Of a stretch of DNA of 34,933 nucleotides, positions 3,484-34,786 are shown one piece after another. Position numbers and translations under genes: made by a program. Origin of the DNA: Victivallis vadensis (GTDB lineage Bacteria; Verrucomicrobiota; Lentisphaeria; Victivallales; GWF2-50-93). Under the pieces are notes generated by a model, which ran no database searches, was not told where the DNA came from, and saw nothing but the letters and a program-made list of their open reading frames with translations. Within the stretch, counting starts at the first letter, position 1. Every line of letters starts with the position of its first letter. Where the stretch lies: assembly GCA_020718525.1 (NCBI GenBank), contig DYRX01000005.1:1-34933 (forward strand), read 5' to 3'.

Positions 3484-4566
3484 ATGAAAGACAATTTCTG
3501 CGTCATCATGGCAGGAGGGATAGGAAGTCGCTTCTGGCCTCTGAGCAAGACCAGCAAGCCCAAGCAGTTTTTGGACATAATGGGAGTTGGCAGGACATTT
3601 CTTCAGCTCACCTGCGATCGTCTCAAGCCTATCTGCCCTGAGGAGAACTTCTTCATTGTCACCAACGAAATTTACAAAGATTTGGTTCTTGAACAGATTC
3701 CGTTTTTGAGCGACGAGCAGGTGCTTCTTGAGCCGGTCAGGCGCAACACCGCCCCCTGCATCGCGTATGCAAACTGCGAAATTCGCAAGAGAAACAAGAA
3801 CGCCAAAATGATTGTCGCGCCTGCGGATCACCTGATACTAAAACAGGATGAATTTCTGCGCGTTTTGAAAAACGGCCTCGATTTCGCCTCAAAAAATGAC
3901 GCATTGCTCACAATCGGCATAAGGCCCAGCCGTCCCGACACCGGCTACGGCTACATCCGGAAATCTTCGCAGAAGGAAGGACTCTCAGGATACGACGAGA
4001 TTTACAAAGTTGACCGTTTCACCGAAAAGCCCAATCTTGAACTCGCAAAATCCTTCTGCGAAAGCGGGGACTACCTCTGGAATTCGGGAATATTTGTCTG
4101 GTCCCTCTCCTCCATAGACAATGCCATTGAAAAATATATGAACGATGTTTTCAGGCTCTTCTCAAGTCTGGCCAGTGGCAAGCCGGACAGGGAAAGCATA
4201 GGACGCGTCTATGCGGCTTCGCCAAACATTTCGATTGATTATGGCGTCATGGAAAAGGCGCCGAATGTATATGTTCATGATGCGGATTTCGCCTGGTCGG
4301 ATCTCGGAACCTGGGGCTCCCTGTATGAAAACATGCACAAGGACGGGACCGCCAACGCCGTGGCATCCGGAGATGCAATGCTCTACGACACAAGAAATTG
4401 CGTAGTCAACGTTCCTCCAAAAAAATTGGTCCTCATACAGGGGCTTGACGGATACATTGTTGTTGATTCCGGGGAGAGCCTGATGATTTGCAAAAAGGAT
4501 GAGGAGCAGAGAATAAAGCAGTTTGTCGGAGACATACAGAGCAGGAAAGGAAGCAATTTTGTCTAA
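3484..4566 (+). CDS. manC: Mannose-1-phosphate guanylyltransferase (monofunctional, no PMI cupin domain)
   Basis: IMAGGIGSRFWPLS..KPKQFL, EPVRRNTAP, PADH, TGYGYI, FTEKP, WNSGIF, SIDYGVMEK, WSDLGTW. Confidence 0.95.
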   Translation: MKDNFCVIMAGGIGSRFWPLSKTSKPKQFLDIMGVGRTFLQLTCDRLKPICPEENFFIVTNEIYKDLVLEQIPFLSDEQVLLEPVRRNTAPCIAYANCEIRKRNKNAKMIVAPADHLILKQDEFLRVLKNGLDFASKNDALLTIGIRPSRPDTGYGYIRKSSQKEGLSGYDEIYKVDRFTEKPNLELAKSFCESGDYLWNSGIFVWSLSSIDNAIEKYMNDVFRLFSSLASGKPDRESIGRVYAASPNISIDYGVMEKAPNVYVHDADFAWSDLGTWGSLYENMHKDGTANAVASGDAMLYDTRNCVVNVPPKKLVLIQGLDGYIVVDSGESLMICKKDEEQRIKQFVGDIQSRKGSNFV

Positions 4567-4659
4567 AAGCCTTTGCATAATTCTTGTAAAGCAGGTCTTT
4601 CATAATTCCAAACTCGATGTATCTTAACAGCAATTGAACAACATATCGGAGAAATGGTC

Positions 4660-4998
4660 ATGAACATATCGGTTGACAAAAAAGGAACGGTTACGCTGAT
4701 CACGCTGACAGGAAAAATTGACTCGTCCAACTCGAAGGATTTGAAGACGAAGTTTTCCCAGCTCCGCGCCTCGCCCGACAATTACGTCATGGACTTCAAA
4801 GATGTGGAATTCATTGACAGTTCGGGTCTGGGCGCATTTGTCGCATGCCTGAAGAGCGCGCTCGAGACAGGCGGCAACATCAAGATCGCGAATCTTCAGA
4901 AAAAGGTTCGCATGGTCTTCGAAATAACGAGAATTCACAAGATTTGCGACATATTCGACAGCGTGGATGCGGCACTGGCCTCATACTCGCGGGCCTGA
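4660..4998 (+). CDS. STAS-domain anti-sigma-factor antagonist (SpoIIAA/RsbV/SypA-like)
   Basis: LTGKID and VEFIDSSGLGAFV with phosphoacceptor Ser at codon 4819-4821; VRMVFEITR. GGAG at 4648 favours ATG 4660 over 4654. Confidence 0.93.
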   Translation: MNISVDKKGTVTLITLTGKIDSSNSKDLKTKFSQLRASPDNYVMDFKDVEFIDSSGLGAFVACLKSALETGGNIKIANLQKKVRMVFEITRIHKICDIFDSVDAALASYSRA

Positions 4999-5031
4999 GC
5001 CGGGGAACTGCACAGCTAGCGGAGCTCCGTC

Positions 5032-6456
5032 ATGAAATGTGTAATCTCGCTCAATTTTTCCGGCTCCTCGTGGGCGACTTCTGTTTTTCCAGGCGCTTCT
5101 GCGCAGACTCTTAAAATAGCTAATAAAGCCTGGTGCGAGTATCTCCTCGACTTTTGCTTTGTCTCCTCCATAAAGGATGTCCGAATTCTCGTTGACGATG
5201 CCGGAGACAAGGTGGAGGATTATTTTTCCGACGGAATGAAGTGGGGACTCTCCATCTCCTACGGATTTTCCCGCGAGGGGGACGGCACGGACGAGATCAT
5301 CCTGAAAAACAGGGATTTCGTATCTGGCAATCAGCTTCTGCTGATCTCTGGTCCAGTCTTCATCAATTATTCTGCAAAGGCTCCAAAGAGCGTTTTTTTC
5401 CAAAAAACCGGACGGGAACTCCGTTCAAAGGACGGACTTGGTCGTCTCCTTCTTCTTGACATTTCATCGGACGGCAAAGTCCTTGAGCCGCCAAGTCTCT
5501 TTTCCCAGGAGGAAGCCGCCTTGGAAATTATGACAATATCCAGCGTCAAGGACTACTACGACGCCAACATGATGGTCATAAGGGAGAAAAGGGCGAACTT
5601 TGTGCTTCCCGGATACAGCAATGAAGACGGAGTCTATCTTGGGCAGAATGTTTCGACAAACAGGACAGCCCGTCTGGAAAAGCCCCTGATGCTGGGGGAC
5701 AATGTCGAGCTTGGCGCACTCTGCGTTTTGGGACCATCCGCGATAATCGGCTCGAATGTGATCATTGACGACAGCTCGGTGATTGAGAACTCCATCGTCT
5801 GCGACGGGACCTATGTGGGACGGGATTTGGACATATCCGGAAAAATCGTATCGCAGTCCAGTCTGATAGATCCTGAATCCGGTGAAAAATTCGTACTTGC
5901 AGACAAATTCATACTTTCCGGAGAGGCGATTTCAGAGTTCATGCTGAAGCTGAAAAAACTGCGTTCCTTCATAGCGGCGCTAGTCCTTGTCGTCGCCATC
6001 TGCCCTTTCTATCTGATATTTATCATATTTTCCAAAATTTTCGGCATTCTGGCGCCCGTCGAGAAGACTTACATCGCCTCTGATAGGAAAAGCAGGGCTA
6101 AAACTACGTTTTTCAAAGATCCTGACTCCTTTGCATCGAGACTCTTCTTCAGGCTTTCCTTGGACAAGTTCCCTCTTCTCCTCGAAGTGCTGAAGGGCAA
6201 TATTTTTGTCGCGGGCAACAGCCTTGCAGACTCGGACGAAGCAGGCGAGAAGTCTCTTGAAAATCTTCCGATCTACCTGCCGGGGGTTTTCACATACGCA
6301 GAGACTGTCTCCGAGTTTGGAGCCATCCCGCCGGAAGAAAGGATGATTCACGACATGTATTACAGCCACAGGCCGTCCTTGCTTCTGGATCTTAAAATTG
6401 TCCTGACAGTATTTTTCTCCAGATTATTCGGTCGCTTTTATCCTCATTCAGCGTGA
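5032..6456 (+). CDS. Fusion of degenerate NDP-sugar pyrophosphorylase domain, left-handed beta-helix, TM helix and degenerate sugar transferase (PGT) domain
   Basis: LKIANKAWCEYLLD and YFSDGMKWGLSISY match the NTP-transferase fold but GGxGTRL is absent; hexapeptide repeats (LGDNVELGALCVLGPSAIIGSNVII); C-terminal LDKFPLLLEVLKG and DMYY....SLLLDLKIVLTV resemble Bac_transf. Confidence 0.75.
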   Translation: MKCVISLNFSGSSWATSVFPGASAQTLKIANKAWCEYLLDFCFVSSIKDVRILVDDAGDKVEDYFSDGMKWGLSISYGFSREGDGTDEIILKNRDFVSGNQLLLISGPVFINYSAKAPKSVFFQKTGRELRSKDGLGRLLLLDISSDGKVLEPPSLFSQEEAALEIMTISSVKDYYDANMMVIREKRANFVLPGYSNEDGVYLGQNVSTNRTARLEKPLMLGDNVELGALCVLGPSAIIGSNVIIDDSSVIENSIVCDGTYVGRDLDISGKIVSQSSLIDPESGEKFVLADKFILSGEAISEFMLKLKKLRSFIAALVLVVAICPFYLIFIIFSKIFGILAPVEKTYIASDRKSRAKTTFFKDPDSFASRLFFRLSLDKFPLLLEVLKGNIFVAGNSLADSDEAGEKSLENLPIYLPGVFTYAETVSEFGAIPPEERMIHDMYYSHRPSLLLDLKIVLTVFFSRLFGRFYPHSA

Positions 6457-6462
6457 AAATTT

Positions 6463-6524
6463 GCATATTGACGGGCAAGATTTGGGATTGGATTTTTTTG
6501 TTCCGCCTGAGGGCTGATATGAAT
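6463..6524 (+). repeat. 62-bp direct repeat, copy 1 (copy 2 at 34778-34839)
   Basis: GCATATTGACGGGCAAGATTTGGGATTGGATTTTTTTGTTCCGCCTGAGGGCTGATATGAAT; first 40 nt identical to copy 2, 4 mismatches in total. Confidence 0.95.
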
Positions 6525-6699
6525 GGTGGCGCGATTTTGGAGCGTTTTATTCGTGGGGGGGAGTAGGAGGACGCAGAGCCGCCATATTGGCTGGCGTTTA
6601 GCGAGCTTTTTCTTTGCCGCATGTCTTTGCGCAAACTTGAAGGGACAATTCGCGATTGCTCGAATCTTCAACCCAAGCATAAAAAGGTCAACACAGATC

Positions 6700-7839
6700 A
6701 TGAGCGGATCAAAATACACTGTTTACGGCGGCTCAGAGATTGACACGCTGATTGAATCGCACATGAACAAGCTCGTTTCCGCCGTCTTGAAGGGCGGATC
6801 GGGAACGCTTTCGGCGATCGTTCTTGGGGGAGGCTACGGCAGAGGAGAGGGCGGAGTCAAAAAGATTGGCGGCAAGGATTTCCTCTTCAACGACTACGAT
6901 CTTTTTCTCATATCGAAGAATTTGAGCAGAAAAGAGAAGGCGAAGCAAAATGCGGCATTCAAGAAGGTCGCGCACAATCTTTCCTCCGAGTTCGGCATAG
7001 AGGTTGACTTCAGCCCCCTTAAAAATGAGTCGGAGCTGAGCTCGCTCGACTATGAAATGGTCTGGCTCGAAGCCAAACTCGGCCACGTCGTCCTTTGGGG
7101 CAATCAGAATGTCTTTGACAGAATTCCCAATTGGGATCTGAAAGATATGCCCCTGGAGGAGGCGGCGAGGCTTCTGATGAACAGGGGAATGGGAATCCTG
7201 CTTTCAAAAGGAAGGCTCGGACACGGGGACGAAGATGCGGAAAGCATGGAGTTTGTCGAGAGAAATGCCTGGAAGGCAATCATGGCGGCAGGCGACACCC
7301 ATCTAATCCTCAACCGCGCCTACGACTCATCATACAGAAAGCGCCTTGAAAACTTCAAGGAGCTTCCATCCGGCAAAGATTGTCTCGCACCCGACTTTGG
7401 CGCCTTCTATGCGAAATCCATCGGCTACAAGCTTCTTCCACCGGAAAATCCACCATCGAAACAGGATGCGTCAAGTCTTCTCGCAAAGGCAACAGAGTTT
7501 CTTCTCGCCTCTCAGATTGCCGTCGCATCGAGAATGGCGGGCAGAAAAATGGAACTCAAAGACCTGGCAGACTGCCCCCCCAACATATGCGCCTCGAAAG
7601 GTTTCAAGGGAATAGCAAAGAACATTGTCCTCAACGCGATGAAGTTCGGACCATTCCAGACGCCGTCCTCATTCCTGAAGCACCCGAGAGGAAGAATTTT
7701 TGCGGCGATTCCGTTTTTCTCCGGAGCAGTAGAATTCGATCCTCTAAAGCTTTCGCGTCTGCTCGGACTTCGCGGAACTGAAACGGACAGGACAGTCCTT
7801 TTCAACGCACTCGTCAAGCTTTGGGAGAGGTTTAGTTGA
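6700..7839 (+). CDS. Pol-beta-superfamily nucleotidyltransferase-domain protein of unknown function
   Basis: SAIVLGGGYGRGEGG...NDYDLF, third acidic residue in EVDF, helical C-terminal domain (WKAIMAAGD..L....YDSSYRKR). Start at ATG 6700 (AAAAGG upstream), not the track's 6523. Confidence 0.7.
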   Translation: MSGSKYTVYGGSEIDTLIESHMNKLVSAVLKGGSGTLSAIVLGGGYGRGEGGVKKIGGKDFLFNDYDLFLISKNLSRKEKAKQNAAFKKVAHNLSSEFGIEVDFSPLKNESELSSLDYEMVWLEAKLGHVVLWGNQNVFDRIPNWDLKDMPLEEAARLLMNRGMGILLSKGRLGHGDEDAESMEFVERNAWKAIMAAGDTHLILNRAYDSSYRKRLENFKELPSGKDCLAPDFGAFYAKSIGYKLLPPENPPSKQDASSLLAKATEFLLASQIAVASRMAGRKMELKDLADCPPNICASKGFKGIAKNIVLNAMKFGPFQTPSSFLKHPRGRIFAAIPFFSGAVEFDPLKLSRLLGLRGTETDRTVLFNALVKLWERFS

Positions 7840-9842
7840 TGGCAGAATCTCAGAAAAACAAAGCCGCGCCAATTACAGAAACGCCATTCGACTTCATAAA
7901 GATTTCGCCGAATGTCCTGCGCGTGACTTTGATGAAAAACATTGTCTGGATCATCCTCGCAGGCATACTTGGTGCGGGAATTGGCGCGGTTGCAAGCAAG
8001 CTGATGATAAAAAACAAATGGACAAGCAGATGCTCCCTGTACAAACTGCCACAGTCCGCCGAACTGCGCAAGGAAATACCTTCCCTCTACGAGCCGCCGG
8101 ATCTGAACACCGTAGTAGAGTCAATAAGGACGAGGGAAAACATACAAAAGGCCATCAAGCGCCTGGGAATGGACATATCGGTTGACGCATTCTACGGAAA
8201 GACCAAGATCCAGAAGCAGAAAAACAACAATCTCTTCACTATCGTGGCAGAGGACGAGGACAGGGAAAAATCCGCCCAGATAGCAAATGTCATGGCTGAA
8301 ATATTCCTTGAATCCTATGCGTCAATGATGCAGGGGTCTGCTAGAAAGCTCGAGGAGCAGTACATCAGCTCCGCCGGAACCATAAGGGCGGAAATGACCG
8401 ACCTCGAGAAGAAAATGCGCAAAATGCTATCTGACAAGGGTATAAACTCGATTGAAACCGAACTCGGAATGAACATACAAAAGGTCAAGGACATCGGAAT
8501 GAAGCTCCTGGAAAGCAGGGCGGCCGCCGAGACAGCCAGGATAAGGCTTCAGGATTTGGACATCGCAATTGCCAAAATGTCCCCTGATGTCCAGATTTCA
8601 TATGTTGTGACTCCGCCTGACGCAGGCCTTCTCAAACAGCTCGAGGCACAGCTCAACGAGCTCACACAGAAATTCACCGACGAAAATCCTAAAGTCAAAA
8701 GACTCCGCTCCGAAATCGAAGAGCTGAAAAAAAGAACCGTCAACCCGGGAAAGCCAAGCCCCGAGCAAGTCACATACGGAAGCAATCAGACCAGACAGAC
8801 TCTCGAAATAGAAAAGCTCAAGGTCGAGTCGGAGCTGAAGTCCTCCATGAAGAACATTGAAAGCTTCGAGCGCGAAGTGAAGGACATCAGAAAAAGCATT
8901 GACGGGATTTCATCCATGAACGAGGAATATTCGGAGCTTTCCAGGAAGCTTGATCTCAACAGGCAGACTTTGAGCAAGGTGGAGACAATGATCGCGGCAT
9001 CCGGACTCTCAGTCAAGCCTAACAGCCTGGACATCAAGATCTTCGAGCCGGCAGTTCCGCCCGCCTACCCAGACAGTTCGAAGCGGAAGCTCATAGTCAT
9101 CGCCGTCGGCGGGCTTTTCATGGGCTTGGTGGGTGCGCTGGCACTCGGCAGGGAAGTTCTGGATCTGACAGTCAAATCCGACTCCGATATGAGCGAAATT
9201 CTGCACGTCAAGAACCTGGGTGCCCTTCCCGACAGAGACGCAGTCAACATCTCGCTTTTCAACGTCTCCTTCCAGGTCGTCTTTGAAAACATGATGAACG
9301 AGCTGAAGAATGTCCAGCGCCCTGTAATTGTCGTCGGATCCGTCTCGAAGGAAGCCGGGAAGTCCCTCCTGATAAACGAGTGCATGAGGATCTTCAGGGC
9401 GAGAAACAAGACTGCCCTGATAATTTCAGACCCGAAAAACGCAGGCGCAGTTGAGAAGAACAGCATGGTCAACCACTTCGTCTATTCGAGACTTCCATTC
9501 GACGATTTCCACCCGACACTGCGGGGAGACGGAAGCCCGGGCGCGTTTTTCGAGCTGGACGAGACGACATTCTCCTACCCTATAGACGAAGAGCGCCTCG
9601 CCGCCTTCATCAAGGAGCAGAAGAGCTATGACATGATCATTTGGGAGCTCTTCGACTTCGACAGGAACAAAAGGCTTTTCTCTACGATAGCGAGACAGTC
9701 AGATCTCTTTGTTCTAGTTACGCGCTTCAGGAAAAGCAAAAAATTGGACTGCATAGCCTGCACAAAATTCTTGAAACTGCAGAACTGCCGGGACATTTCC
9801 GGAATCGTGAATTGCATCCACAGCGATTATTTCAACATTTGA
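7839..9842 (+). CDS. Wzc/GumC-like polysaccharide co-polymerase with degenerate C-terminal BY-kinase-like domain
   Basis: Two TM segments flanking a long coiled coil with FTDENPKVKRLRSEI; IFEPAVPP before TM2; LGALP; P-loop remnant GSVSKEAGKS; TGATG coupling to the upstream gene. Confidence 0.85.
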   Translation: MAESQKNKAAPITETPFDFIKISPNVLRVTLMKNIVWIILAGILGAGIGAVASKLMIKNKWTSRCSLYKLPQSAELRKEIPSLYEPPDLNTVVESIRTRENIQKAIKRLGMDISVDAFYGKTKIQKQKNNNLFTIVAEDEDREKSAQIANVMAEIFLESYASMMQGSARKLEEQYISSAGTIRAEMTDLEKKMRKMLSDKGINSIETELGMNIQKVKDIGMKLLESRAAAETARIRLQDLDIAIAKMSPDVQISYVVTPPDAGLLKQLEAQLNELTQKFTDENPKVKRLRSEIEELKKRTVNPGKPSPEQVTYGSNQTRQTLEIEKLKVESELKSSMKNIESFEREVKDIRKSIDGISSMNEEYSELSRKLDLNRQTLSKVETMIAASGLSVKPNSLDIKIFEPAVPPAYPDSSKRKLIVIAVGGLFMGLVGALALGREVLDLTVKSDSDMSEILHVKNLGALPDRDAVNISLFNVSFQVVFENMMNELKNVQRPVIVVGSVSKEAGKSLLINECMRIFRARNKTALIISDPKNAGAVEKNSMVNHFVYSRLPFDDFHPTLRGDGSPGAFFELDETTFSYPIDEERLAAFIKEQKSYDMIIWELFDFDRNKRLFSTIARQSDLFVLVTRFRKSKKLDCIACTKFLKLQNCRDISGIVNCIHSDYFNI

Positions 9843-9852
9843 CGAGGAGACT

Positions 9853-10980
9853 ATGAGCAAATCTGTTAAAAATTCTATTTTTATCTGCACTGTCTTTTTT
9901 TTCATCATTTTCCAGAACGGATGTAACGTTCCGGAGGGAGCAATAGACGCGTCCACTCTGCCTACGGAGGCTGAAGAAATCGCTGGTGGAACGCAAAACA
10001 ATGAGAAAATTAAAAAAGAGCTCGAGGAGCTACAGAAGCTCAAGACCGATGTCTACCGCTTCGCCCCGGGCGACAAATTCGATTTCAGGGTTTACGACAA
10101 CGAGGACATGACCTTCAACGGAGTGATTGTCACGCCGGATGGAAATGTCTCGATTCCCCTTGCCGGAGTTGTCCAGGTCGGCGGGCTTTCAATTGCCGAG
10201 GCACAGGCCGCCGTCGAGGAAAAACTGCGCAAATTTATACGCGACCCGCACGTATCGCTCATCCCGACTGAGATTTCTTCTTCAACATTTACAATCGTTG
10301 GAAAAGTCGGAAATCCAAACCGCTTCGCGATCACGCGGACAACACGGCTGACAGACGCGGTAGCGATGGCGAAAGGCTTTCTCACCGGACAGTACGACGG
10401 AAAAACCATAGAAATAGCAGATCTTGACAACGCCTTCATCGCAAGAAACGGAAAAGTCCTTCCAGTAAACTTCATAGAAGCCATAGAAAGAGGCAACCCT
10501 CTGCACAACATCCCCCTTGCCGACGGCGACTACATCTACATCCCGTCCTCCGTGAACGCGGAAATATTCATACTCGGCGAGGTTGTAGCCCCGACCCACA
10601 TTGGCTACCAGAACGGCATGACCGTCACAAGGGCGCTGACATATGCCAGAGGACTCCTCGAGGCTTCTTCCTCGACCATTCTTGTGATAAGAGGAAATCT
10701 TGCGACACCAAAGGTTTACGCGATTGACATACACGACGTGATGCGCGGGATGCAGAGAGACTTTGTCCTCAAGCCCAACGACATCATTTTTGCGCCCCGC
10801 GGAGCATTCTCCCAATACAACGTCGTAGTGGAAAAGCTCATGCCAACATTTGAACTTCTAAATCTGATTGCCGGACCTTTTGGAAACAACGCAATGACTC
10901 TCGCCCTTCCATCGTCTAGCGGAGACAGCGGAGGCGGTGGCGGCGGAAGCAGTGGTAACAGCAGTGGGAGCGGGAACTGA
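9853..10980 (+). CDS. wza: Wza/OPX polysaccharide export lipoprotein with SLBB domains
   Basis: Signal peptide ending QNGC; YRFAPGD, VTPDGNVSIPLAGVVQVGGLS, FIRDPHVS; SLBB repeats LADGDYIYIP and LKPNDIIFAP. Confidence 0.9.
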   Translation: MSKSVKNSIFICTVFFFIIFQNGCNVPEGAIDASTLPTEAEEIAGGTQNNEKIKKELEELQKLKTDVYRFAPGDKFDFRVYDNEDMTFNGVIVTPDGNVSIPLAGVVQVGGLSIAEAQAAVEEKLRKFIRDPHVSLIPTEISSSTFTIVGKVGNPNRFAITRTTRLTDAVAMAKGFLTGQYDGKTIEIADLDNAFIARNGKVLPVNFIEAIERGNPLHNIPLADGDYIYIPSSVNAEIFILGEVVAPTHIGYQNGMTVTRALTYARGLLEASSSTILVIRGNLATPKVYAIDIHDVMRGMQRDFVLKPNDIIFAPRGAFSQYNVVVEKLMPTFELLNLIAGPFGNNAMTLALPSSSGDSGGGGGGSSGNSSGSGN

Positions 10981-10998
10981 CAAGAGGAAAGCGGAGAG

Positions 10999-12390: not shown

Positions 12391-12392
12391 AC

Positions 12393-12569: not shown

Positions 12570-12596
12570 AAATAAATCTTTGAACAGGAACAACTT

Positions 12597-14168: not shown

Positions 14169-14197
14169 AACAACACGTAATTCGGGGAGAATGGAAA

Positions 14198-15403: not shown

Positions 15404-15413
15404 TGGAGAATAA

Positions 15414-16433: not shown

Positions 16434-16449
16434 GCACGGCAAAAAGAAG

Positions 16450-19944: not shown

Positions 19945-19994
19945 AACCGGCAATTGGAGCCGCCGCGGATGGCGATAAATGAGAGGAATGAAAA

Positions 19995-22863: not shown

Positions 22864-22878
22864 TATGGAGATGCTCAC

Positions 22879-26479: not shown

Positions 26480-26482
26480 CAT

Positions 26483-27487
26483 ATGATAGCTCAGATTGCG
26501 AAACGCCTTAAAAATCTTATTGACGGAGACTCATTGCCGGTATATGTGATTTTCAGAAATCCGCCGGTCTTCATCAGCTATTTCGAAGATTTCCAGAAAT
26601 GCAAGGACGATATTATCCACTCGCTTTCCGGAGAAAAAGCCCATTTCATCTTTCAATTCGGATGGCATCGGGAAACACAGGAAAGAGCCGAAGAAGTCGG
26701 AAAGGAGATTGCGGATTTGAAGAGGACAAATCCGGAAATTGAAAGTATTTTCCTCTGTAACTCCGAAAACGAGCAGAGATTGGTCGGGGCCGCTGGAGTC
26801 AGGGCGGAATTCTGCCATCAGAACGCTTTTCTGGATGAAAATATCTACTCCATTTACAATGTCCCCAAAAAGTACGATGCGATTTACGTCGCAAGGATAA
26901 CCCCCTTCAAAAGACATTTTTTGGCTTCCAAGATCAAGTCTTTGCGCCTGATAGGCGACTATTCGATGAAGGAGGAATGGCACTTCAATGAGGTTATGCG
27001 CGCTCTTCCTAACGCAGACTGGAAGCGCAAGGCGTTTTCCAGATTCATGTCGAGAAACATGTGCGAAGCGCATTGCGGACTCTGTCTCTCCGCAGAAGAG
27101 GGTGCAATGTTCGTGAGCGCCGAATATCTCCTTTCCGGACTTCCCGTCGTTTCAACGGCAAACATCGGCGGAAGAGATGTAATGTTCGACAAATCCTACG
27201 CTTTCCCGGCGCAGGATACGCCAGATTCCGTCCTCGAAGGGGTTGAAGTGATGAAAAAGACAGCCCCGCCTGCGCAGGAAATCAGAAAATTGACTTTGGA
27301 GAACTTTGCCCCGCATCGTGAAAAGATGATCTCGATTCTACAGGAAATCTGCGACAAGCGCTCCGTCAAAAGGAATGTCCGCGCGGAATGGAGTAAGTTT
27401 TTCTCGCACAAATTCGGGCTCAGATGCTTCAATGGACCGATTGTCAGATTGACGAGAATACTTAAAAAAAAGAGTTCTAAAAACTAG
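26483..27487 (+). CDS. GT-B fold glycosyltransferase (GT4-like)
   Basis: YDAIYVAR..PFKRH; EX7E motif in EGAMFVSAEYLLSGLPVVST..GGRD. Confidence 0.78.
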   Translation: MIAQIAKRLKNLIDGDSLPVYVIFRNPPVFISYFEDFQKCKDDIIHSLSGEKAHFIFQFGWHRETQERAEEVGKEIADLKRTNPEIESIFLCNSENEQRLVGAAGVRAEFCHQNAFLDENIYSIYNVPKKYDAIYVARITPFKRHFLASKIKSLRLIGDYSMKEEWHFNEVMRALPNADWKRKAFSRFMSRNMCEAHCGLCLSAEEGAMFVSAEYLLSGLPVVSTANIGGRDVMFDKSYAFPAQDTPDSVLEGVEVMKKTAPPAQEIRKLTLENFAPHREKMISILQEICDKRSVKRNVRAEWSKFFSHKFGLRCFNGPIVRLTRILKKKSSKN

Positions 27488-27526
27488 GAGGAGTCCGCCG
27501 GGCTTCCCCCGAGGATCCATAAATTT

Positions 27527-28459
27527 ATGAGACCAGTTTCAGATCAGAGGCGCATCAAGGAATTGCAGGCGAGGATCTCAATCCTCACCAGGGACACCCC
27601 GTGCAAAATACATCTGATGCACATAAAGCTTATTGTGGAGACAATCAAGCTGATACTCAATTCCACAAGACTCGGAGACAAAGGCTACAAAAACGCTCTG
27701 GACATTGAACTCAGCGAACGTGAACTTCATTTCAAGAGGCTTCCTAGTGAATTCGACGGATTCAGACTCCTTCACATATCGGACTTGCACATTGACGGAA
27801 TGCCAGAGCTGAAGGACAAAATGCTGGAAAAGATAATGCCCCTGGAATTCGATCTCTGCCTCCTCGGCGGGGACTACAGATTCCACAACAGCGGCAACAC
27901 CAGAAACGTCTGCGACAGAATGAGAAGTTTTATTTCGGAGCTGATTAAGAAGAACAAACCTGTCGCAGGAATACTGGGCAACCACGACGAATACGAAATC
28001 GCAAAACTTCTCGATCAGGCTGGCGTCGCTATGCTGATCAATGAAAGCATGAAAATATCAAGGAACGGGGCGGACATCTTTGTATGCGGACTGGACGACT
28101 GCCATTACTATTCCTCTCAGAACATTGCCGACTCGCTCGCTGGTATCCCTACGGATTCATTCAAAATCGTTCTCAGCCATTCGCCTGAACTCTACGCCGA
28201 AGCGGAAAAAGCCGGATTCGACCTCTACCTGGCTGGACACACGCATGGCGGCCAGATATGCCCAGTCCCCGGATTTCCAGTTCTGATACAGGCAAAGATT
28301 CCGCGCAGTCTGGCGTCCGGCATCTGGAACTATAAAAATCTGACAGGTCTGACCAACCGCGGAGCGGGAAGCAGTGGCGCGCCCGCAAGGTTCAACTGCC
28401 CGCCTGAAATTGCGCTGATCACCCTCAGAAAGGAGCCGGAAAATGAAGCCAAAGATTGA
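27527..28459 (+). CDS. Calcineurin-like metallophosphoesterase (YkuE/YaeI-like)
   Basis: All five metal motifs present: ISDLH, GGD, LGNHD, LSH, GHTHGGQ; RFNCPPEI. Confidence 0.9.
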   Translation: MRPVSDQRRIKELQARISILTRDTPCKIHLMHIKLIVETIKLILNSTRLGDKGYKNALDIELSERELHFKRLPSEFDGFRLLHISDLHIDGMPELKDKMLEKIMPLEFDLCLLGGDYRFHNSGNTRNVCDRMRSFISELIKKNKPVAGILGNHDEYEIAKLLDQAGVAMLINESMKISRNGADIFVCGLDDCHYYSSQNIADSLAGIPTDSFKIVLSHSPELYAEAEKAGFDLYLAGHTHGGQICPVPGFPVLIQAKIPRSLASGIWNYKNLTGLTNRGAGSSGAPARFNCPPEIALITLRKEPENEAKD

Positions 28460-29609
28460 CATTTTCATGTTCATAGACGCGATGGGCTGGGAGGTGATCA
28501 AAGGCAGAGGCTTTCTTGAGGACATGCTCGCATACCGCCGTCCGGCAGGGATGCAGTTCGGCTATTCCTCGACAGCGATTCCCACCATTTTGACCGGCAC
28601 TCCGCCAATCGTCCACAAGCATCTGAGCTTCTACTACTACGCTCCGGACAAATCTCCCTTCAAGGCTTTTCATCTTTTGGGCCTCGGGCTTCTTCCCGAG
28701 AAGATCGCCGCAAAATGGAGACTCAGACATGTCTTGTCCAAGTGCGTCGCGAAAGCCTATGGATTCACCGGATATTTTGAAATGTATGCGATGAGCTTCA
28801 AGAAAATCCATTATTTCGACTACATTGAAAAGACAGACATCTTTGTTCCGGGGGGGCTTTCTCCGACTCCAAACCTCGCCGACCGCCTCAGCGATGCAAA
28901 TGTTCCGTACCACATTTCAAATTGGAGGCTCTCCGAGCAGGAGAACATTGACGCTCTCCTGAGGGACATTGAAAAAGAGGATATAAGCTTCGCATTCCTA
29001 TACACAGCAGCCATGGACGGACTTCTTCACATGGTTACAAAGAATGGCGCAAAGATACCAGTCAAGCTGGACTGGTATTCCTCGCATATCAGGAAGATCG
29101 CCGACACCGCCGCAAAGCATTACAGGGAAATATCAATTTCAGTCTTCTCCGACCACGGAATGACGAGCAAAAGCGGGGTCGAAGACATCATGGGACTGGT
29201 CGAAAAGCTCGGATTCAGATTTGGGAAAGACTATGCGGCGGTCTATGACTCCACCATGTCGAGATTTTGGTTTCTCAATGACCGCGCCAGGGAGGAGCTC
29301 GGCGACGCCCTCACGAAAATGCCGCGCTCAAGAGTCCTCAGCGAAGCAGAGAAGATTCGATACAGAATAAATTTTGCCGACAATATGTACGGGGAGGCGA
29401 TTCTTCTGATGGATCCCGGCGTTCAGATCGAGCCCTGCGACATGGGTCTGAAGGCTCTGCCCGGAATGCATGGATTCGCCCCCGAGCACGAGGACTCCTA
29501 TGCGGCTTTTCTTTCCACCGGGAAGCCATCGTCAGAACCGAACTGGGTCGGCGACTACTTCAAGATCATGACCGACAGCTTCGCCTCTAGAAAGGAGAAC
29601 CCGCAATGA
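28443..29609 (+). CDS. Alkaline-phosphatase-superfamily (NPP/type I phosphodiesterase-like) protein, no signal peptide
   Basis: FIDAMGW, GYSSTAIPTILTG..P..H, DGLLH, FSDHGM, GMHG. Confidence 0.85.
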   Translation: MKPKIDIFMFIDAMGWEVIKGRGFLEDMLAYRRPAGMQFGYSSTAIPTILTGTPPIVHKHLSFYYYAPDKSPFKAFHLLGLGLLPEKIAAKWRLRHVLSKCVAKAYGFTGYFEMYAMSFKKIHYFDYIEKTDIFVPGGLSPTPNLADRLSDANVPYHISNWRLSEQENIDALLRDIEKEDISFAFLYTAAMDGLLHMVTKNGAKIPVKLDWYSSHIRKIADTAAKHYREISISVFSDHGMTSKSGVEDIMGLVEKLGFRFGKDYAAVYDSTMSRFWFLNDRAREELGDALTKMPRSRVLSEAEKIRYRINFADNMYGEAILLMDPGVQIEPCDMGLKALPGMHGFAPEHEDSYAAFLSTGKPSSEPNWVGDYFKIMTDSFASRKENPQ

Positions 29610-30457
29610 GCAGGCCTCTTGCAAGCATAGTAATGAGATCAATGAACGACATCAAGTTCATCGAAAAGACTTTGGAGGGCCTATTCTCGCAGAGCTTCAA
29701 GGATTTCGAACTGCTCAACATTGACTCCGGCTCCAGCGACGGCACATATGAAATCATAAAAAAATACAACTCCAACAAATGCAGACAGATACGCCCGCAG
29801 GACTATGTCCCCGGAAAGGTTCTCAATTCGATGGTCAAAGAATGCGCAGGCGAGCTGATCGTCTTCAACAATTCTGACTGCATCCCGATGAATTCCGACT
29901 GGCTGAAAAATCTTCTGGAGCCGCTAGTCAGCGAAGCCGATGTCGGAGCTTGCTTTGCAAACCAGTTGCCAAGGCCTGATGCGGATCTGCTTGTCGCAAA
30001 GGACAACCTGAGAGCCTACGGCGACGGTAGAATCTCCGCGACATGGAGGCACTTCTTCTCCCTCGCAAGCAGTGCTGCAAGAAAAAAAGTTCTCGAAGAG
30101 CATCCTTTCGACGAGAAGATCCAATACTCCGAGGATGTAGAATGGTCGCTGAGAATCAAGAATCTCGGATGGAAAATAAGATATGTCCCGAGCGCGGTAG
30201 TGGAGCATTCCCACAACTACAGCAGGAAAGAACTGAAGAAGCGCTTCTACAACGAGGGGCTGGCGGACGGGAGGATATTCGGGGAGCGCCCCAAGTTTTT
30301 GAGGAGCTTTCTACTTCCCCTTCTCGCCGAGTCGGCAAGGGACGCCGCCTATCTTGCAAAAACTGGGAATGTCCTGAGCATTCCTGACGGCATCATCTAC
30401 AGATTCATTCAAAGGCATTCCGCCTACAGAGGCAGAAGGGACTTCTTTCTAAAATGA
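29606..30457 (+). CDS. Glycosyltransferase family 2 (rhamnosyltransferase-like)
   Basis: IDSGSSDGT, FNNSD, QLPRPDA, SEDVEW, VEHSHNY; ATGA overlap with the upstream gene. Confidence 0.87.
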   Translation: MSRPLASIVMRSMNDIKFIEKTLEGLFSQSFKDFELLNIDSGSSDGTYEIIKKYNSNKCRQIRPQDYVPGKVLNSMVKECAGELIVFNNSDCIPMNSDWLKNLLEPLVSEADVGACFANQLPRPDADLLVAKDNLRAYGDGRISATWRHFFSLASSAARKKVLEEHPFDEKIQYSEDVEWSLRIKNLGWKIRYVPSAVVEHSHNYSRKELKKRFYNEGLADGRIFGERPKFLRSFLLPLLAESARDAAYLAKTGNVLSIPDGIIYRFIQRHSAYRGRRDFFLK

Positions 30458-31608
30458 AGATATTGATGGCAAGCAGATACGCGAAAAGAATTGGAGGAAT
30501 AGAAAGCTTCCTCTTCGATTCATCGAGGATTTTGAAGAGGGACGGTCATTCGATATTCGCCCTTTTCGAGGAAGGAGAGCTCGCCCAGACCGAGGCTTCC
30601 ATCTTCGAGAAGCACTTGACTCTCCCACAGGACGGAGCCACTGGAAATGTTCTGGATCAGATCGCGTCTATATCCCCGGACATGGTCATGATCCATAAGA
30701 TTTGCGATATCCGCCTCCTAAGGGAACTGAACCGCCGCTTCAAAACGCTCGCGGTCGTCCACGACCACGACTACTACTGCATAAGAAGGCACAAATACTT
30801 CCCGGTCAACAGAAAAAACTGCACGCGCCCATTTTCTCTACCATTCTGCTCGCTGTGCTCCACACTTCTCGAAAGGAGCGCCTCGGGCGTCAAAATGATA
30901 AATCCATTTGCACGGATGGCAATGCTGTCGGAGATACGCAGATGCGGAAAATATGCAGTGATATCGGAATATATGAGGGAAAATCTGATTTCCAATTCAT
31001 TCGACAGCAATAAGATAGCAAAACTCAAGCCGCCTCTCCGCGCTCTATCCGGCGAGCAGACAGAAAATAAAAGATGCGGCGCTTTCAGAATTCTCTTCGT
31101 TGGACAGCTCATACGCGGAAAGGGCGCAGACCTTCTTCTGCACGCCGCAAAGCTTCTAAAAATTGATTTTGAACTGCGAATTGCAGGCACTGGTAACGAC
31201 GAATCCTTTCTAAAGGAGCTCTGCTCCGAACTCAAACTTTCTTCCCAAGTCTCGTTTATGGGCAGGGCGACTGATATTGCTCCGCTCTACGACTGGGCGA
31301 ACATATCTGTCCTGCCGTCGCGCTGGCAGGAGCCCTTCGGACTGGTAGGAATCGAGTCAATGTCGCGCGGCAGACCTGTCGTCGCTTTCGACATTGGCGG
31401 CGTTCGCGAGTGGCTCAGGGACTCCTGGAACGGACTTCTGGCAAAACCCGGTGACGTCGCAGACCTCGCGGCTAAAATTGAAGAGCTCGCCGGCTCCGAA
31501 GACATGATGAGGACGTTCGGAGCCAACGGGCTTGACACTGTGCGCCTGGACTATTCCGACCAGGCTTTTGTCAGTTCATTTTTGAACTCAATAGAGGATC
31601 TCAAATGA
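30454..31608 (+). CDS. Glycosyltransferase family 4
   Basis: GGIE, HDHDYYC with Cys-rich loop, FVGQL..GKG, PSRWQEPFGLVGIESM, GGVREW. Confidence 0.9.
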   Translation: MKILMASRYAKRIGGIESFLFDSSRILKRDGHSIFALFEEGELAQTEASIFEKHLTLPQDGATGNVLDQIASISPDMVMIHKICDIRLLRELNRRFKTLAVVHDHDYYCIRRHKYFPVNRKNCTRPFSLPFCSLCSTLLERSASGVKMINPFARMAMLSEIRRCGKYAVISEYMRENLISNSFDSNKIAKLKPPLRALSGEQTENKRCGAFRILFVGQLIRGKGADLLLHAAKLLKIDFELRIAGTGNDESFLKELCSELKLSSQVSFMGRATDIAPLYDWANISVLPSRWQEPFGLVGIESMSRGRPVVAFDIGGVREWLRDSWNGLLAKPGDVADLAAKIEELAGSEDMMRTFGANGLDTVRLDYSDQAFVSSFLNSIEDLK

Positions 31609-32741
31609 AAAACATACTCTTTTCAGCAATGCCTATGGACGAGGGAAAATCTGGAATATCCAACTACATCTTCAACGTTCTAGGAGAAATGCTCAAGGAA
31701 AACAATGTGACTGTCGCCGCGCTCGGCAGAGACATGCATCTGCTCGAAAAACGCTTTCCGAAGGCGAAGTTCATTGTTGTAGCGGACAGATTCGCAAGCC
31801 CGCTTCGCAACATGCTCTGGCATCTTTTCATCTTCCCTTTCACAATAAGAAGATCAAGCTACGACTTTATTTTCCTGCCCGCCGCCAACAGGAGAGTCAT
31901 ATGCATAAGTCCTTTGTTTTCAATAGGAACCGTCCACGACTTCTCTCAGTTGCACATAAAGGGCAAATACGATCTTTTCCGCACCTTCTACGTTGAAAAG
32001 CTCATACCATTTTTTCTACACAGGCTCAGTGCGGTAGTCTCCGTGAGCGAAAGCACCAAAAAGGACATAGTCTCGCACTGCGGAATCGCAGACGACAAGG
32101 TGACAGTCCTCTACAACGGATATGACCGCAGTCTCTGCAATCTCAGTTTCCCTTCGGATCCGACTGCGACAAGAAACAAATTTGCGTTTGGCCAGGAGTA
32201 CATCCTCTACATATCCAGAATAGAGCACCCCGGCAAAAACCATCTCAACCTCATCAAGGCGTATGAAAGGCTTCCGGCGTCTATAATCGAAAAGTATGCC
32301 CTTGTTCTGGCAGGAAGCGACTGGACTGGTGCCGAAAAGGTTCACGAGTACGCCAAGGCATCCCCGCTCGCCAATCGTATCGTCTTCACTGGATTCGTCG
32401 CGTCCGAAGATCTGCCCCATCTCTACAGGGGGGCGTCGCTCTACGTTTTTCCGTCATTCTTCGAGGGCTTTGGAATTCCTCTGATCGAAGCGATGGCCTG
32501 CGGCGCCCCATGCGCGTGCTCCAACTGCTCCTCGCTTGCGGAAATCGCCGGATCTGCAGCCATGACTTTCGATCCCGCCAATCCAGATGAAATTTCCGCC
32601 GCAATAGGAAAAATACTTGAAAATCAGGCGCTCTCGGCGGAACTCTCCTCCAAGGGCAAAGAGAGAGTCTCCATCTTTTCATGGGAAAAGCACGTCAAGG
32701 GAATTTTGGACATCTATGATTCAAGAACGAAGAAAAAATGA
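31605..32741 (+). CDS. Glycosyltransferase family 4 (MtfB/WbpY-like, possible mannosyltransferase)
   Basis: SGISNY, TVHD, VSESTK.DI, RIEHPGKN, FPSFFEGFGIPLIEAMACG. Confidence 0.9.
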   Translation: MKNILFSAMPMDEGKSGISNYIFNVLGEMLKENNVTVAALGRDMHLLEKRFPKAKFIVVADRFASPLRNMLWHLFIFPFTIRRSSYDFIFLPAANRRVICISPLFSIGTVHDFSQLHIKGKYDLFRTFYVEKLIPFFLHRLSAVVSVSESTKKDIVSHCGIADDKVTVLYNGYDRSLCNLSFPSDPTATRNKFAFGQEYILYISRIEHPGKNHLNLIKAYERLPASIIEKYALVLAGSDWTGAEKVHEYAKASPLANRIVFTGFVASEDLPHLYRGASLYVFPSFFEGFGIPLIEAMACGAPCACSNCSSLAEIAGSAAMTFDPANPDEISAAIGKILENQALSAELSSKGKERVSIFSWEKHVKGILDIYDSRTKKK

Positions 32742-34077
32742 TCTCGATCGCATAGAATCGAATCTGAGCGATTCAGTTCAGGGGACATTTCGCGCCTCTG
32801 CAAAAAAAATCGTCTCCGTCTCCTGCAGAGGAATGGCGCTAATCCTCCGTAGAATCTTCGAAATCGCCATCTCGCTCCCTTTGATTTTCCTTTTCACCCT
32901 CCCGATTGGGATTGCGAAATTCGCAAAAAGAATTTTCACAGGCAAGCCGGTCTTTGAAAAAAAAGCCGTCTATGGAAAGAACGGAGCGCCACTCGAGATC
33001 GTCTTCTTCAATTCCAGGCGTTATTTTGTCAGAAAGGCTTCATTGTTCGTCTACGTTCTAACGGGAAAAATCGCCCTTGTCGGCATTGGAATAGAAGATT
33101 ATGGAAGCAGACCGGATCTTCCGGAAAACGCCTATCTCCTCAGGGACAAGCCTGGCATTTTCAATCTTTGGTTTGTCAGGGAAAGCGGAAAGATAGGGCA
33201 TGAGGGGAAAATTGGGACTGAGTGGGAGTATGTATTTAGAAGGGACCTCTCAAAGGACATAGTTCTAATTCTCAAGAGCATTCCTGCGGCTCTTATGAGA
33301 AGCGAGGGAAGCGCATACCGTCCGGAAATTAATCTGCTGAACGTCAAATTCAGAAATATGCGGATGCTTGAGGCTCTGGAATTCATGGAGAAATCCATAG
33401 TTTCCGGAGATCGTAAAAAAGTATTTTTCATCAATCCGGACTGTCTCAACAAGAGCGTTTCCGACAGAGAGTACGCAGATAATCTCGCGAAGTCGGACAT
33501 TGTCCTTCCGGATGGTTCAGGAATCAATCTCGCGTGCAAGATAATGGGGACCCATCTCATAGAAAACGTGAACGGAACCGACATGTTCCCGTTCATCTGC
33601 CGCCTTTCCGCGGAAAAAAGCTTCAAAATATTCCTTCTCGGAGCCAAGCCAGGAATTGCCGACGCTGTCAGAAAAAACTGCGAGAGCAACTATCCCGGGG
33701 TGAAATTCTGCGGAGTCAGGGACGGCTATTTCGACAAAGCCAAGGAGTCTGCTAAAGTCATTTCAGAAATAAATGAAGCCGACCCGGATTTTCTTCTTGT
33801 CGCCTTTGGCGCACCATACCAGGAGAAATGGATAACGGAGCATTTTTCCGCCCTCGGGGCAAGAGTCTGCATTGGTGTCGGAGGGCTCTTCGACTTCTAT
33901 TCCGGGAGAATTCCCAGAGCGCCGAAATGGATGCGCGAACTTGGATTGGAATGGATATTCAGACTCCTTCAGGAACCGGCCCGCATGTGGAAAAGATATG
34001 TGATCGGCAACCCGCTTTTTGTGTTCAGAGTTCTTAAATGGAAAGCATTTATGGAGGATTCCAATGGAAATAAATGA
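32716..34077 (+). CDS. Fusion of degenerate PGT (Bac_transf-like) domain and WecB/TagA/CpsF (GT26) glycosyltransferase
   Basis: N-part LRRIFEI, G..GAP, VLTGKIALVG, KPGIF, DIVLILKS; C-part LPDGSGI, NGTD, GAPYQEKW, GVGGLFDF, RAP.WM...GLEW..RL.QEP.R.WKRY. Start at ATG 32716 is tentative. Confidence 0.87.
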   Translation: MIQERRKNDLDRIESNLSDSVQGTFRASAKKIVSVSCRGMALILRRIFEIAISLPLIFLFTLPIGIAKFAKRIFTGKPVFEKKAVYGKNGAPLEIVFFNSRRYFVRKASLFVYVLTGKIALVGIGIEDYGSRPDLPENAYLLRDKPGIFNLWFVRESGKIGHEGKIGTEWEYVFRRDLSKDIVLILKSIPAALMRSEGSAYRPEINLLNVKFRNMRMLEALEFMEKSIVSGDRKKVFFINPDCLNKSVSDREYADNLAKSDIVLPDGSGINLACKIMGTHLIENVNGTDMFPFICRLSAEKSFKIFLLGAKPGIADAVRKNCESNYPGVKFCGVRDGYFDKAKESAKVISEINEADPDFLLVAFGAPYQEKWITEHFSALGARVCIGVGGLFDFYSGRIPRAPKWMRELGLEWIFRLLQEPARMWKRYVIGNPLFVFRVLKWKAFMEDSNGNK

Positions 34078-34786
34078 GAGACGGAACAGAGAGGAGATGA
34101 TTGACAAGTTCATCTCCGCCCGCCGCAAGGACAAACTGCTCCCTTCGGGACTTAAGATGGTGGCGTGGAAGTCAACTGTCGCATTATCATACTTTCTCAA
34201 GCGCGCAATTGACATCCTCGTATCATCCACGGCGCTTTTCATCGCTTCGCCATTCTTCACCCTTCTTGCCATCGCGATCAAAATCGAATCGCCAGGTCCT
34301 CTCATCTTTTCTCAGATCAGAGTCGGGAAAAACGGACGGCACTTTAAATTTTTCAAATTCAGATCCATGGTTCAGAACGCGGAAAAACTAAAGGACCAGC
34401 TCAAGCAGGACAACGAGTCAAAGGACGGCGTGATATTCAAGATGAAGAAAGATCCGAGAATCACGAAGATTGGCGCTTTCATACGAAAATTCAGCATAGA
34501 CGAACTGCCACAGCTTTTCAATGTTCTGATCGGAGACATGAGCCTGGTAGGTCCCCGCCCTCCCCTGCCCCGCGAAGTCGCGGAATACACGCTGGAAGAC
34601 CGCAAGCGCCTTCATGCCAAGCCTGGCATCACATGCACTTGGCAGATATCTGGACGAAGCGACATCCCATTTAAGATTCAGGCCGAGCTGGACAAGGAAT
34701 ACATACACAGCAAGAGCTTCTGGAAGGACATGAAAATTCTTATTCTTACCGTTCCGGCAGTCATCACCGGAAAAGGCGCATATTGA
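34064..34786 (+). CDS. Priming (initiating) monotopic phosphoglycosyltransferase / bacterial sugar transferase
   Basis: KRAID, Q.RVG.NG..F...KFRSM, DPRIT.IG.FIRK.SIDELPQL.NVL.GDMSLVGPRP, KPGIT..WQ..GRS; GGAGG RBS before ATG 34064. Confidence 0.95.
   Translation: MEINERRNREEMIDKFISARRKDKLLPSGLKMVAWKSTVALSYFLKRAIDILVSSTALFIASPFFTLLAIAIKIESPGPLIFSQIRVGKNGRHFKFFKFRSMVQNAEKLKDQLKQDNESKDGVIFKMKKDPRITKIGAFIRKFSIDELPQLFNVLIGDMSLVGPRPPLPREVAEYTLEDRKRLHAKPGITCTWQISGRSDIPFKIQAELDKEYIHSKSFWKDMKILILTVPAVITGKGAY

Follow-up and report, generated by a model that had tools for sequence, protein, structure and literature searches.

How bacteria ration undecaprenyl phosphate among their surface polymers is an open question, and two papers from 2025-2026 present the priming phosphoglycosyl transferase (PGT) as a direct regulatory target (PMC12802240, PMC13555669). 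In Anabaena PCC 7120, Harada et al. (2026) described a STAS-Bac_transf fusion, All4160, in which phosphorylation of Ser74 by Alr3423 is inhibitory and the REC-SpoIIE phosphatase HenR restores activity; such fusions are stated to be rare outside cyanobacteria (PMC13555669). In Myxococcus xanthus, Schwabe et al. (2025) reported that phosphorylated EpsW activates the PGT EpsZ post-translationally, probably via dimer formation (PMC12802240). The STAS protein SypA of Vibrio fischeri exerts its effect downstream of transcription, through a protein that has yet to be identified (PMC10120452, PMC11112999), and the gene table published for the syp locus of Aliivibrio salmonicida contains neither a nucleotidyltransferase (NT)-like pseudoenzyme nor WecG (PMC6420764). 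A 31 kb polysaccharide locus of Victivallis vadensis is compared here with these systems. Its 23 genes (g1-g23) occupy positions 3484-34786 on the plus strand of contig DYRX01000005.1 (C547 of a genome of 592 contigs, 4.35 Mb and 91% complete), the whole of which was analysed (34,933 nucleotides, hereafter the window). Near its start, a single-domain STAS protein (g2) is encoded beside a PGT-like protein that appears to be catalytically dead (g3).

Recurrence of the STAS-pseudoenzyme pair

Judged by gene neighbourhoods, the recurring core of the locus is a set of four genes, encoding a small PGT (g23, 34019-34786), STAS (g2, 4654-4998), the predicted pseudoenzyme g3 (5032-6456) and a protein in which PP2C is fused to an RsbW-type kinase (g11, 16450-19944). 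A metagenome profile scan with the g3 alignment identified 97 relatives within 237 candidate stretches and yielded 80 loci, whose open reading frames (ORFs) were called and compared with the 23 proteins of the window. L087-L089 matched through the beta-helix only and were excluded, leaving 77 loci in which g3 has a homologue at E<1e-20. STAS lies just upstream of g3 in 57 of the 62 loci with room for it. Counting both sides of g3, it is found in 52 of 53, the exception being L082. Dereplication by clustering of g3 at 80% identity reduced 78 loci, L009 included, to 53 lineages. STAS flanks g3 in 40 of the 41 lineages with room on both sides and is found upstream in 41 of 45. A PGT precedes g3 in 34/40 lineages and WecG does so in 25/30, and a second STAS follows g3 in 28/45.

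The same arrangement is seen in ten species genomes of the phylum of the window, from which 40 kb around g3 was fetched. A PGT is encoded upstream of g3 in all ten, within about 2.7 kb, and a STAS gene is present within the 40 kb in nine. A REC-PP2C-HATPase_c_2 protein accompanies them in seven genomes, with G166 carrying REC and a PP2C fragment. In three of these genomes (G023, G089 and G203) the genes are ordered REC-PP2C-kinase, PGT, STAS, g3, with no other match to a window protein in 40 kb and no Wzx/Wzy genes. In G023 (L118/L119) the genes that come after the cassette encode a radical SAM enzyme, a member of the PLD family and proteins of sugar catabolism. Since the cassette stands alone among unrelated genes, the four genes behave as a self-contained unit, at least in one genome and as far as gene content can tell. 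The stand-alone four-gene cassettes, scanned with the proteins of the window and with Pfam, contain no sigma gene.

Association with g3 was distinguished from association with PGTs in general by a control at the level of the order, comprising the best 30 PGT loci (±1.5 kb) from 41 genomes. STAS is found near none of the 25 PGT loci without g3 and near two of the five with it. STAS appears, from these neighbourhoods, to track g3 rather than PGTs at large, and the STAS-pseudoenzyme link is the strongest signal in the comparison.

The phylogeny of STAS points in the same direction. In a tree of 74 STAS sequences, g2 falls in a clade of 41 rows, namely 40 STAS sequences encoded upstream of g3 and g2 itself (support 99/90). 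Five of its STAS paralogues in the same genome are placed on the opposite side of the tree (support 99/92), and the copies encoded downstream of g3 fall outside the clade. The alignment has few columns and the deep forks of the tree are unsure; at the supported level, the tree indicates that a dedicated STAS clade accompanies g3.

Three arrangements recur among the metagenome loci. Variant A (e.g. L029), the nearest to the window, is ordered WecG, PGT, STAS, g3, g4, AlkP, co-polymerase, Wza, Wzy. Variant B (L022) begins with a REC-PAS histidine kinase, a REC-PAS-PP2C protein and a sigma-54 activator, followed by pseudoPGT-WecG, PGT, STAS, g3, STAS, GT2 and others. Variant C (L085) comprises a PGT, a WecG-STAS-STAS fusion, an NT-LbH-PGT-like protein (LbH, left-handed beta-helix), STAS, a GAF-PP2C protein and an RsbW-type kinase.

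The g3 family is large and travels under generic annotations. At E<=1e-30 a full profile scan identified 1030 cluster representatives, of which the top 150 all score <=1.3e-70, and members are annotated merely as 'NDP-sugar synthase', 'NDP-sugar pyrophosphorylase family protein', 'sugar transferase' or 'hypothetical'. A word search yielded only 22 matches, in records of Sedimentisphaeraceae and Chlorobiaceae; further named records belong to Verrucomicrobiota, Cloacimonadota and one Lentisphaerae genome (L009), the latter being the sole related locus found when g3 alone was searched against genome contigs. Records of the module as such span Lentisphaerota/Verrucomicrobiota, Planctomycetota, Chlorobiaceae and Cloacimonadota. 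Within the phylum of the window, full-length g3 genes are present in 54 of 401 sampled genomes among the matches listed (E<=1.5e-76). The profile matches 204 genomes at 1e-10, mostly through generic NT/LbH similarity, and none of the six other genomes of the window's own family. The best g3 homologue among the species genomes (G319:C231:3962-5374, L091; 8.7e-155) has one in-frame TAA, possibly reflecting a broken gene or a sequencing error.

A model for control of priming

The reading preferred here, with moderate confidence, is that the STAS switch acts via its dead-PGT partner g3 at the priming step; both the contacts and the direction of the effect are inferred. Priming would be carried out by the PGT g23 and extension by WecG (g22) and the GT4 and GT2 enzymes. 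Wzx (g8) would flip and Wzy (g7) polymerise, with the PslE-like g5 and Wza (g6) serving in export, and the GT2/GtrA/GT-C set probably attaches side sugars outside the cytoplasm. Control would be exerted at commitment to priming, on proteins rather than on transcription. Here, g11 would set the phosphorylation of Ser56 of STAS, its kinase domain adding the phosphate and its PP2C domain removing it. STAS in one of its two phospho-states would dock on g3, in its cytoplasmic part; SypA and All4160 suggest, by analogy, that the docking form may be the unphosphorylated one and its effect activating. The dead PglC-like domain of g3 could then pair in the membrane with the live PGT, and this pairing would open or close priming. 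The original prediction had tied STAS to the pseudoenzyme encoded next to it. Comparative genomics lends good support to that tie at the priming step (40/41 lineages), and physical contact between the two proteins is suggested by it.

Two extensions of this model are held less firmly. Tentatively, g3 may represent a kind of regulatory subunit that is new: an inactive paralogue of a priming enzyme that would pair with the live PGT in the membrane and serve as the missing receptor by which a single-domain STAS controls polysaccharide synthesis without a sigma factor; its NT/beta-helix half would read the phospho-state and may also read a nucleotide or nucleotide sugar. It is improbable that the ANT-like g4 and the NPP-like g18 make and remove a nucleotide-type ligand of g3.

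The main rival, which is rather unlikely, is that STAS binds the live PGT g23 or WecG g22 directly, g3 being a separate scaffold or a nucleotide-sugar sensor. Fusions favour such contact: the STAS-Bac_transf fusion is regulated in cis (PMC13555669), and in L085 a single ORF (7559-9010) located between the PGT and the g3-like gene encodes WecG/TagA and two STAS domains (STAS 3.1e-33, two stretches). The gene order PGT-STAS-g3 places STAS beside both candidates, and the weak matches of g3 to LbH_EIF2B (4.2e-10, below the cut-off) and GlgD (1.4e-4) in Pfam and NCBIfam recall non-catalytic regulatory subunits. Direct contact is opposed by the strictness of the STAS-g3 link, since no PGT locus without g3 had a STAS gene next to it (0/25), and in the window and L009 it keeps company with g3 and not with the PGT.

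Structure and predicted inactivity of g3

The 474-aa g3 protein is predicted to have three domains, an RmlA-like NT fold, a left-handed beta-helix and, following a membrane helix, a PglC-like PGT domain. In Pfam it has sub-threshold matches only, to NTP_transferase, to LbH_EIF2B/Hexapep and to the C-terminal half of Bac_transf. An AlphaFold2 model built from 16 relatives (predicted local distance difference test, pLDDT, 78.8) predicts the folds of the N- and C-domains confidently. In a Foldseek search the model matches the NT+LbH protein tlr0611 (1.3e-10), many RmlA structures (about 1e-8) and PglC (8e37_A, E 1.2e-7, TMt 0.61), consistent with a PglC-like fold at the C-terminus.

The catalytic motifs of PglC-type monotopic PGTs are the DE dyad (..DELPQ..) and GPRP. 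Both are kept in g23 and in three other aligned PGTs, and the SIDELPQL/GPRP of g23 corresponds to SLDKFPLL/GNSL in g3, with DK for DE and GNSL for GPRP. The consensus of the g3 family is LSLDKF, with the Asp of the dyad kept; the Glu is lost in every aligned member. On the NT side, GGxG[ST]R is missing from all five aligned g3-family rows and kept in the genuine NTs g1 and L085:5242-5691. The NT-LbH-PGT-like protein of L085 is less diverged, yet it too lacks GGxGTR and DE in the alignments. With folds kept and catalytic motifs lost, g3 is best explained as a catalytically dead protein, as far as alignments and the model can tell.

A second degenerate PGT-like domain forms the N-terminal part of g22, where FVRKASLF/GSRP places RK at the position of DE. 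Depending on lineage, the WecG gene occurs with such an N-domain (about 450-600 aa, as in L022:7113-8894 and at 32617-34077 of the window) or without it (290 aa, L029:7991-8860).

It is unlikely that g3 is instead an active enzyme of unusual chemistry, for example a sugar-phosphate transferase using the kept Asp, with STAS regulating an enzyme and not an adaptor. The conservation of the Asp in LSLDKF and of many N-domain residues (including NKP and GxxWG in the family alignment), together with the confident N- and C-domain folds, would suit activity. Against it, every aligned member is without GGxG[ST]R, the signature for nucleotide binding, and has neither GPRP nor the Glu of the dyad, and a canonical PGT is encoded beside g3 nearly always.

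The predicted partner switch and its place in the genome

The STAS protein g2 (114 aa; STAS 5.4e-19) carries the predicted phospho-site Ser56 within the motif DSSGLG. Across 29 orthologues D55, L59 and G60 are invariant and S56 is nearly so, the pattern of a phospho-Ser STAS. The sensor g11 is a 1164-aa membrane protein of the order PAS x2-PP2C-RsbW-type Ser kinase (PAS_3 2.3e-28; SpoIIE 7.8e-32; HATPase_c_2 1.5e-7); its ORF is open from 16318, and the likely start is the Met at 16450. The kinase boxes (E..N..H of the N-box, DxG and GxG) are invariant in all five aligned sequences. A GHKL Ser kinase and a PP2C phosphatase are accordingly found in one protein, the RsbW and RsbU parts of a partner switch.

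Together, g2 and g11 appear by domain content to be one switch among several in this genome, which has about ten STAS domains, five HATPase_c_2 matches and seven PP2C domains. Other partner-switch sets of the genome (G000) are located on C132 (STAS, RsbW-type kinase and PP2C), C545 (kinase and PP2C) and C578 (STAS and PP2C).

Pfam and NCBIfam detect no sigma factor, anti-sigma factor or DNA-binding family among the 23 locus proteins or the eight flanking ORFs, and no sigma factor that could be the switched partner was found in the flank of the G023 cassette either. The absence of transcription and sigma factors claimed in the original prediction stands for the window; it does not extend to L022, which carries a sigma-54 activator and a histidine kinase. 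A classical partner switch, in which a sigma factor from elsewhere in the genome is held by the g11 kinase, or by a different RsbW-type kinase, until STAS sets it free and it transcribes the locus, is very unlikely: all three parts of such a switch are present, the genome has further modules of the kind and variant B loci carry the sigma-54 activator, but no sigma or anti-sigma family occurs among the 23 genes, the kinase domain comes at the end of a membrane sensor of 1164 aa, the four-gene cassette stands alone without a sigma gene, STAS domains are fused to pathway enzymes (L085; PMC13555669) and SypA works below transcription (PMC10120452).

Several observations weigh against a STAS switch that acts through g3. 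STAS and g3 of the window lie about 28 kb from the PGT g23. The metagenome loci cannot be counted as independent samples. In G163, a PGT, g3 and REC-PP2C-kinase are present with no STAS detected in 40 kb. Within 1.5 kb, STAS is missing from three of the five g3-bearing loci of the order-level control; in G006 it is encoded 5.5 kb upstream. Confidence in the g3 model is low across the beta-helix (pLDDT 54-67), and the Asp retained in LSLDKF leaves room for residual or altered chemistry. Finally, cross-talk between g2/g11 and the other switches of the genome is possible.

The polysaccharide cluster and its accessory genes

The interval 3484-34786 is filled by 23 plus-strand ORFs with short gaps or overlaps between neighbours. 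Pfam matches at E<=0.01 were obtained for 20 of the 23 proteins, all except g4, g12 and g13. By Pfam and NCBIfam the cluster contains a full Wzx/Wzy-type polysaccharide gene set, and every element that the original prediction listed for a co-oriented locus of this type is present. By this gene content it is a surface-polysaccharide cluster, which probably produces an exported heteropolysaccharide by the Wzx/Wzy route.

The set opens with g1 (3484-4566), a mannose-1-phosphate guanylyltransferase-like protein with an intact GGIGSR in the motif alignment (NTP_transferase 5.8e-36; TIGR01479 3.2e-84, below its cut-off). Export and assembly are represented by the PslE/Wzc-like co-polymerase g5 (7836-9842; Wzz 3.6e-4, TIGR03007 1.8e-29), the Wza-type outer-membrane export protein g6 (9853-10980; Poly_export 1.6e-18, SLBB_2 2.9e-16), the Wzy-type polymerase g7 (10999-12390; Wzy_C 4.4e-9) and the Wzx-type flippase g8 (12597-14168; Polysacc_synt_3 3.7e-11); two Wzx-type families are matched in the locus. 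Glycosyltransferases of the GT4 family are encoded by g9 (14165-15403; Glyco_trans_1_4 2.3e-25), g20 (30454-31608; Glycos_transf_1 1.7e-34) and g21 (31605-32741; Glycos_transf_1 3.9e-35), and a GT2 enzyme by g19 (29606-30457; Glycos_transf_2 3.4e-16). The set closes with g22 (32617-34077), whose degenerate PGT-like membrane domain precedes WecG/TagA of family GT26 (Glyco_tran_WecG 2.1e-62; Bac_transf fragment 5.7e-8), and with the small monotopic PGT g23, intact in its motifs (Bac_transf 4.1e-66; TIGR03025 1.3e-85).

Embedded among these polysaccharide genes, along with g2 and g11, are those for a probable lipoprotein (g10), a metallophosphoesterase (g17) and an alkaline-phosphatase (AlkP)-superfamily protein (g18). 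A side module comprises g12 (19995-21617) and g13 (21589-22863), both polytopic membrane proteins; g14 (22879-24474), a membrane domain with GT2 of the polyprenyl-phosphate hexose synthase type (Glycos_transf_2 9.4e-34; NF041391 2.6e-21); and g15 (24464-26479), a GtrA-like domain fused to PMT_2 of the GT-C type (GtrA_DPMS_TM 1.9e-14; PMT_2 6.7e-7). The hydrophobic g13 matches no Pfam or NCBIfam family, and g12, without a Pfam match, is possibly GT-C/ArnT-like on an Atlas lead. The GT-C module of the original prediction is confirmed for g15 through PMT_2 and is a mere lead for g12. The divergent GT1-like g16 (26483-27487; Glyco_trans_1_4 0.0046, Atlas GT1 clusters) is followed by the YaeI/LpxG-like metallophosphoesterase g17 (27527-28459; Metallophos 5.4e-11, NF008460 4.1e-27, below its cut-off) and the NPP-like g18 (28443-29609; Phosphodiest 1.3e-9).

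Judged by their patchy recurrence, four elements are lineage-specific extras outside the core: the NTase (g4), the Cache protein, the AlkP-like gene and the GT-C module. A search for a larger recurring set had been proposed. STAS, the pseudo-NT-PGT protein, PGT and WecG do co-occur. Downstream of g3 the NTase is present in no more than 10 of 42 lineages, and around most relatives neither GT-C genes nor phosphoesterases were detected. The whole 23-gene set was considered as a single 'system' and rejected, its recurrence being limited to the core. Also rejected was the idea that the separation of STAS and g3 from PGT and WecG to opposite ends of the contig is an assembly artefact, for in L009 STAS is likewise the first gene of the locus, preceded by unrelated genes on the other strand.

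The Pol-beta-fold NTase g4 (6700-7839, 379 aa) is of the ANT/AadA type and belongs to no curated family of Pfam or NCBIfam. Its ORF is open from 6523, and relatives start at the Met at 6700. As originally claimed, it is a Pol-beta NTase by both motif and fold: GGGYGR.EGG, NDxDxF and a later DF, corresponding to hG[GS], DxD and the third carboxylate, are invariant in 12/12 sequences, and its model (pLDDT 89.4) matches ANT(4') (8e-4), AAD(9), AadA, HalB and MNT nucleotidyltransferases in Foldseek. The slot after g3 is taken by this NTase in 13 loci and by the GT1-like g16 in five (L010, L012 and L014-L016). The AlkP-like g18 follows g4 in variant A loci and g16 in L010 and L014. The window carries both g4 and g16, with g16-g18 displaced by 20 kb. 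In L009, the closest relative, a PRK/uridine-kinase-family gene (6754-7392; 1.3e-30) lies between the g3 and g4 homologues; none is found there in the window.

Bacterial tyrosine (BY)-kinases of the Wzc type are recognised by Walker A, A' and B motifs and a C-terminal Tyr cluster. A profile of g5 searched against the PDB matched PslE best (4.4e-18), then Wzc (5.9e-10), with kinase-domain-only chains at E 0.09-0.5. In the cytoplasmic domain of g5 the P-loop G..GKS is invariant in 12/12 relatives, a Glu occupies the Walker B position, and the C-terminus shows one nearby Tyr and no Tyr cluster. Of the four degenerate domains first proposed, the NT and PGT domains of g3 and the PGT domain of g22 have indeed lost their motifs; the BY-kinase of g5 fits the description in part, its GKS being kept. 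In variant B loci the co-polymerase has a recognisable BcsQ/AAA_31 ATPase domain. The replacement of Tyr cycling by Ser phosphorylation, put forward in the original prediction, is one of its weaker parts. For g5, g16 and g18, no useful match came from single-sequence searches of the solved structures.

The probable lipoprotein g10 (15414-16433) was identified by a lipobox, LLGAC, located by eye, and by a weak Cache-like match (dCache_1 2e-7). Both halves of the earlier 'Cache lipoprotein' are among its weaker points, the Cache match scoring 31.2 bits against a Pfam cut-off of 45. Besides the window, a homologue occurs only in L009 among the loci searched with the window proteins.

Upstream of the locus are a ThuA-like gene (70-843), a GFO/IDH/MocA oxidoreductase gene (880-1923), a DUF985 cupin gene on the minus strand (1926-2369) and an ORF that matches no family (2635-3132). 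None of the four appears connected to the locus.

Comparison with known systems

Not all of this is new. The locus had been put forward as undescribed, and two of its principles are published: STAS phosphorylation acting directly on a priming enzyme, as in All4160 (PMC13555669), and regulation at the level of the PGT, as in EpsW-EpsZ (PMC12802240). What may be new is the trans form, in which a separate STAS protein would act with a dead-PGT partner; no description of it was found in the literature searched, outside which most subscription journals fall. If correct, the module extends PGT-level regulation to several non-cyanobacterial phyla and adds a new kind of player, the pseudo-PGT. It also makes g3 a candidate for the type of partner used by STAS proteins such as SypA, whose target has been unknown for more than a decade.

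The closest parallel is All4160 with HenR and Alr3423, together with XssP of Synechocystis, where a priming PGT is under the direct control, with no sigma factor involved, of a phospho-Ser STAS, an RsbW-type kinase and a phosphatase of the PP2C (SpoIIE) type (PMC13555669). In All4160, STAS and Bac_transf form one polypeptide, whereas here they are the separate genes g2 (4654-4998) and g23 (34019-34786). The module described here further differs in that the dead NT-LbH-PGT protein g3 is always nearby, in that kinase and phosphatase are fused in one protein, and in its occurrence in several non-cyanobacterial groups. EpsW-EpsZ is similar in that a small phospho-dependent protein acts on a priming PGT (PMC12802240). 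However, its regulator is a response-regulator receiver domain and not STAS, its target is a large monotopic PGT, and no dead PGT paralogue is reported to be involved.

Compared with syp, the window has g3 and WecG, neither of which is listed in the published table (PMC6420764). In both, as far as the published descriptions go, the ends of a Wzx/Wzy-type locus are taken by a single-domain STAS and by a sugar transferase, and variant B relatives resemble syp further in carrying a histidine kinase, REC-PP2C and a sigma-54 activator. SypE is ordered kinase-REC-PP2C; g11, in contrast, is a TM-PAS-PAS-PP2C-kinase protein (TM, transmembrane) without REC, and neither a sigma-54 activator nor a histidine kinase is encoded in the window, which sets it apart from a syp-type locus.

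In the HsbR/HsbA system of Pseudomonas aeruginosa, a REC-PP2C-kinase protein acts on STAS and is tied to flagellar and cyclic di-GMP control, not to a PGT. The domain order of HsbR is that of the cassette proteins in seven of the ten related genomes, whereas in g11 the inputs are membrane and PAS domains and not REC. For g3 itself, the nearest precedents are GlgD, eIF2B gamma/epsilon and GMPPA, in which an NT fold and a beta-helix have lost catalysis and taken on a regulatory role. The likeness of g3 to these proteins, an NT+LbH architecture that is apparently without catalysis, is seen through weak matches only, and none of them has the membrane PGT-like domain or the tie to STAS that characterise g3.

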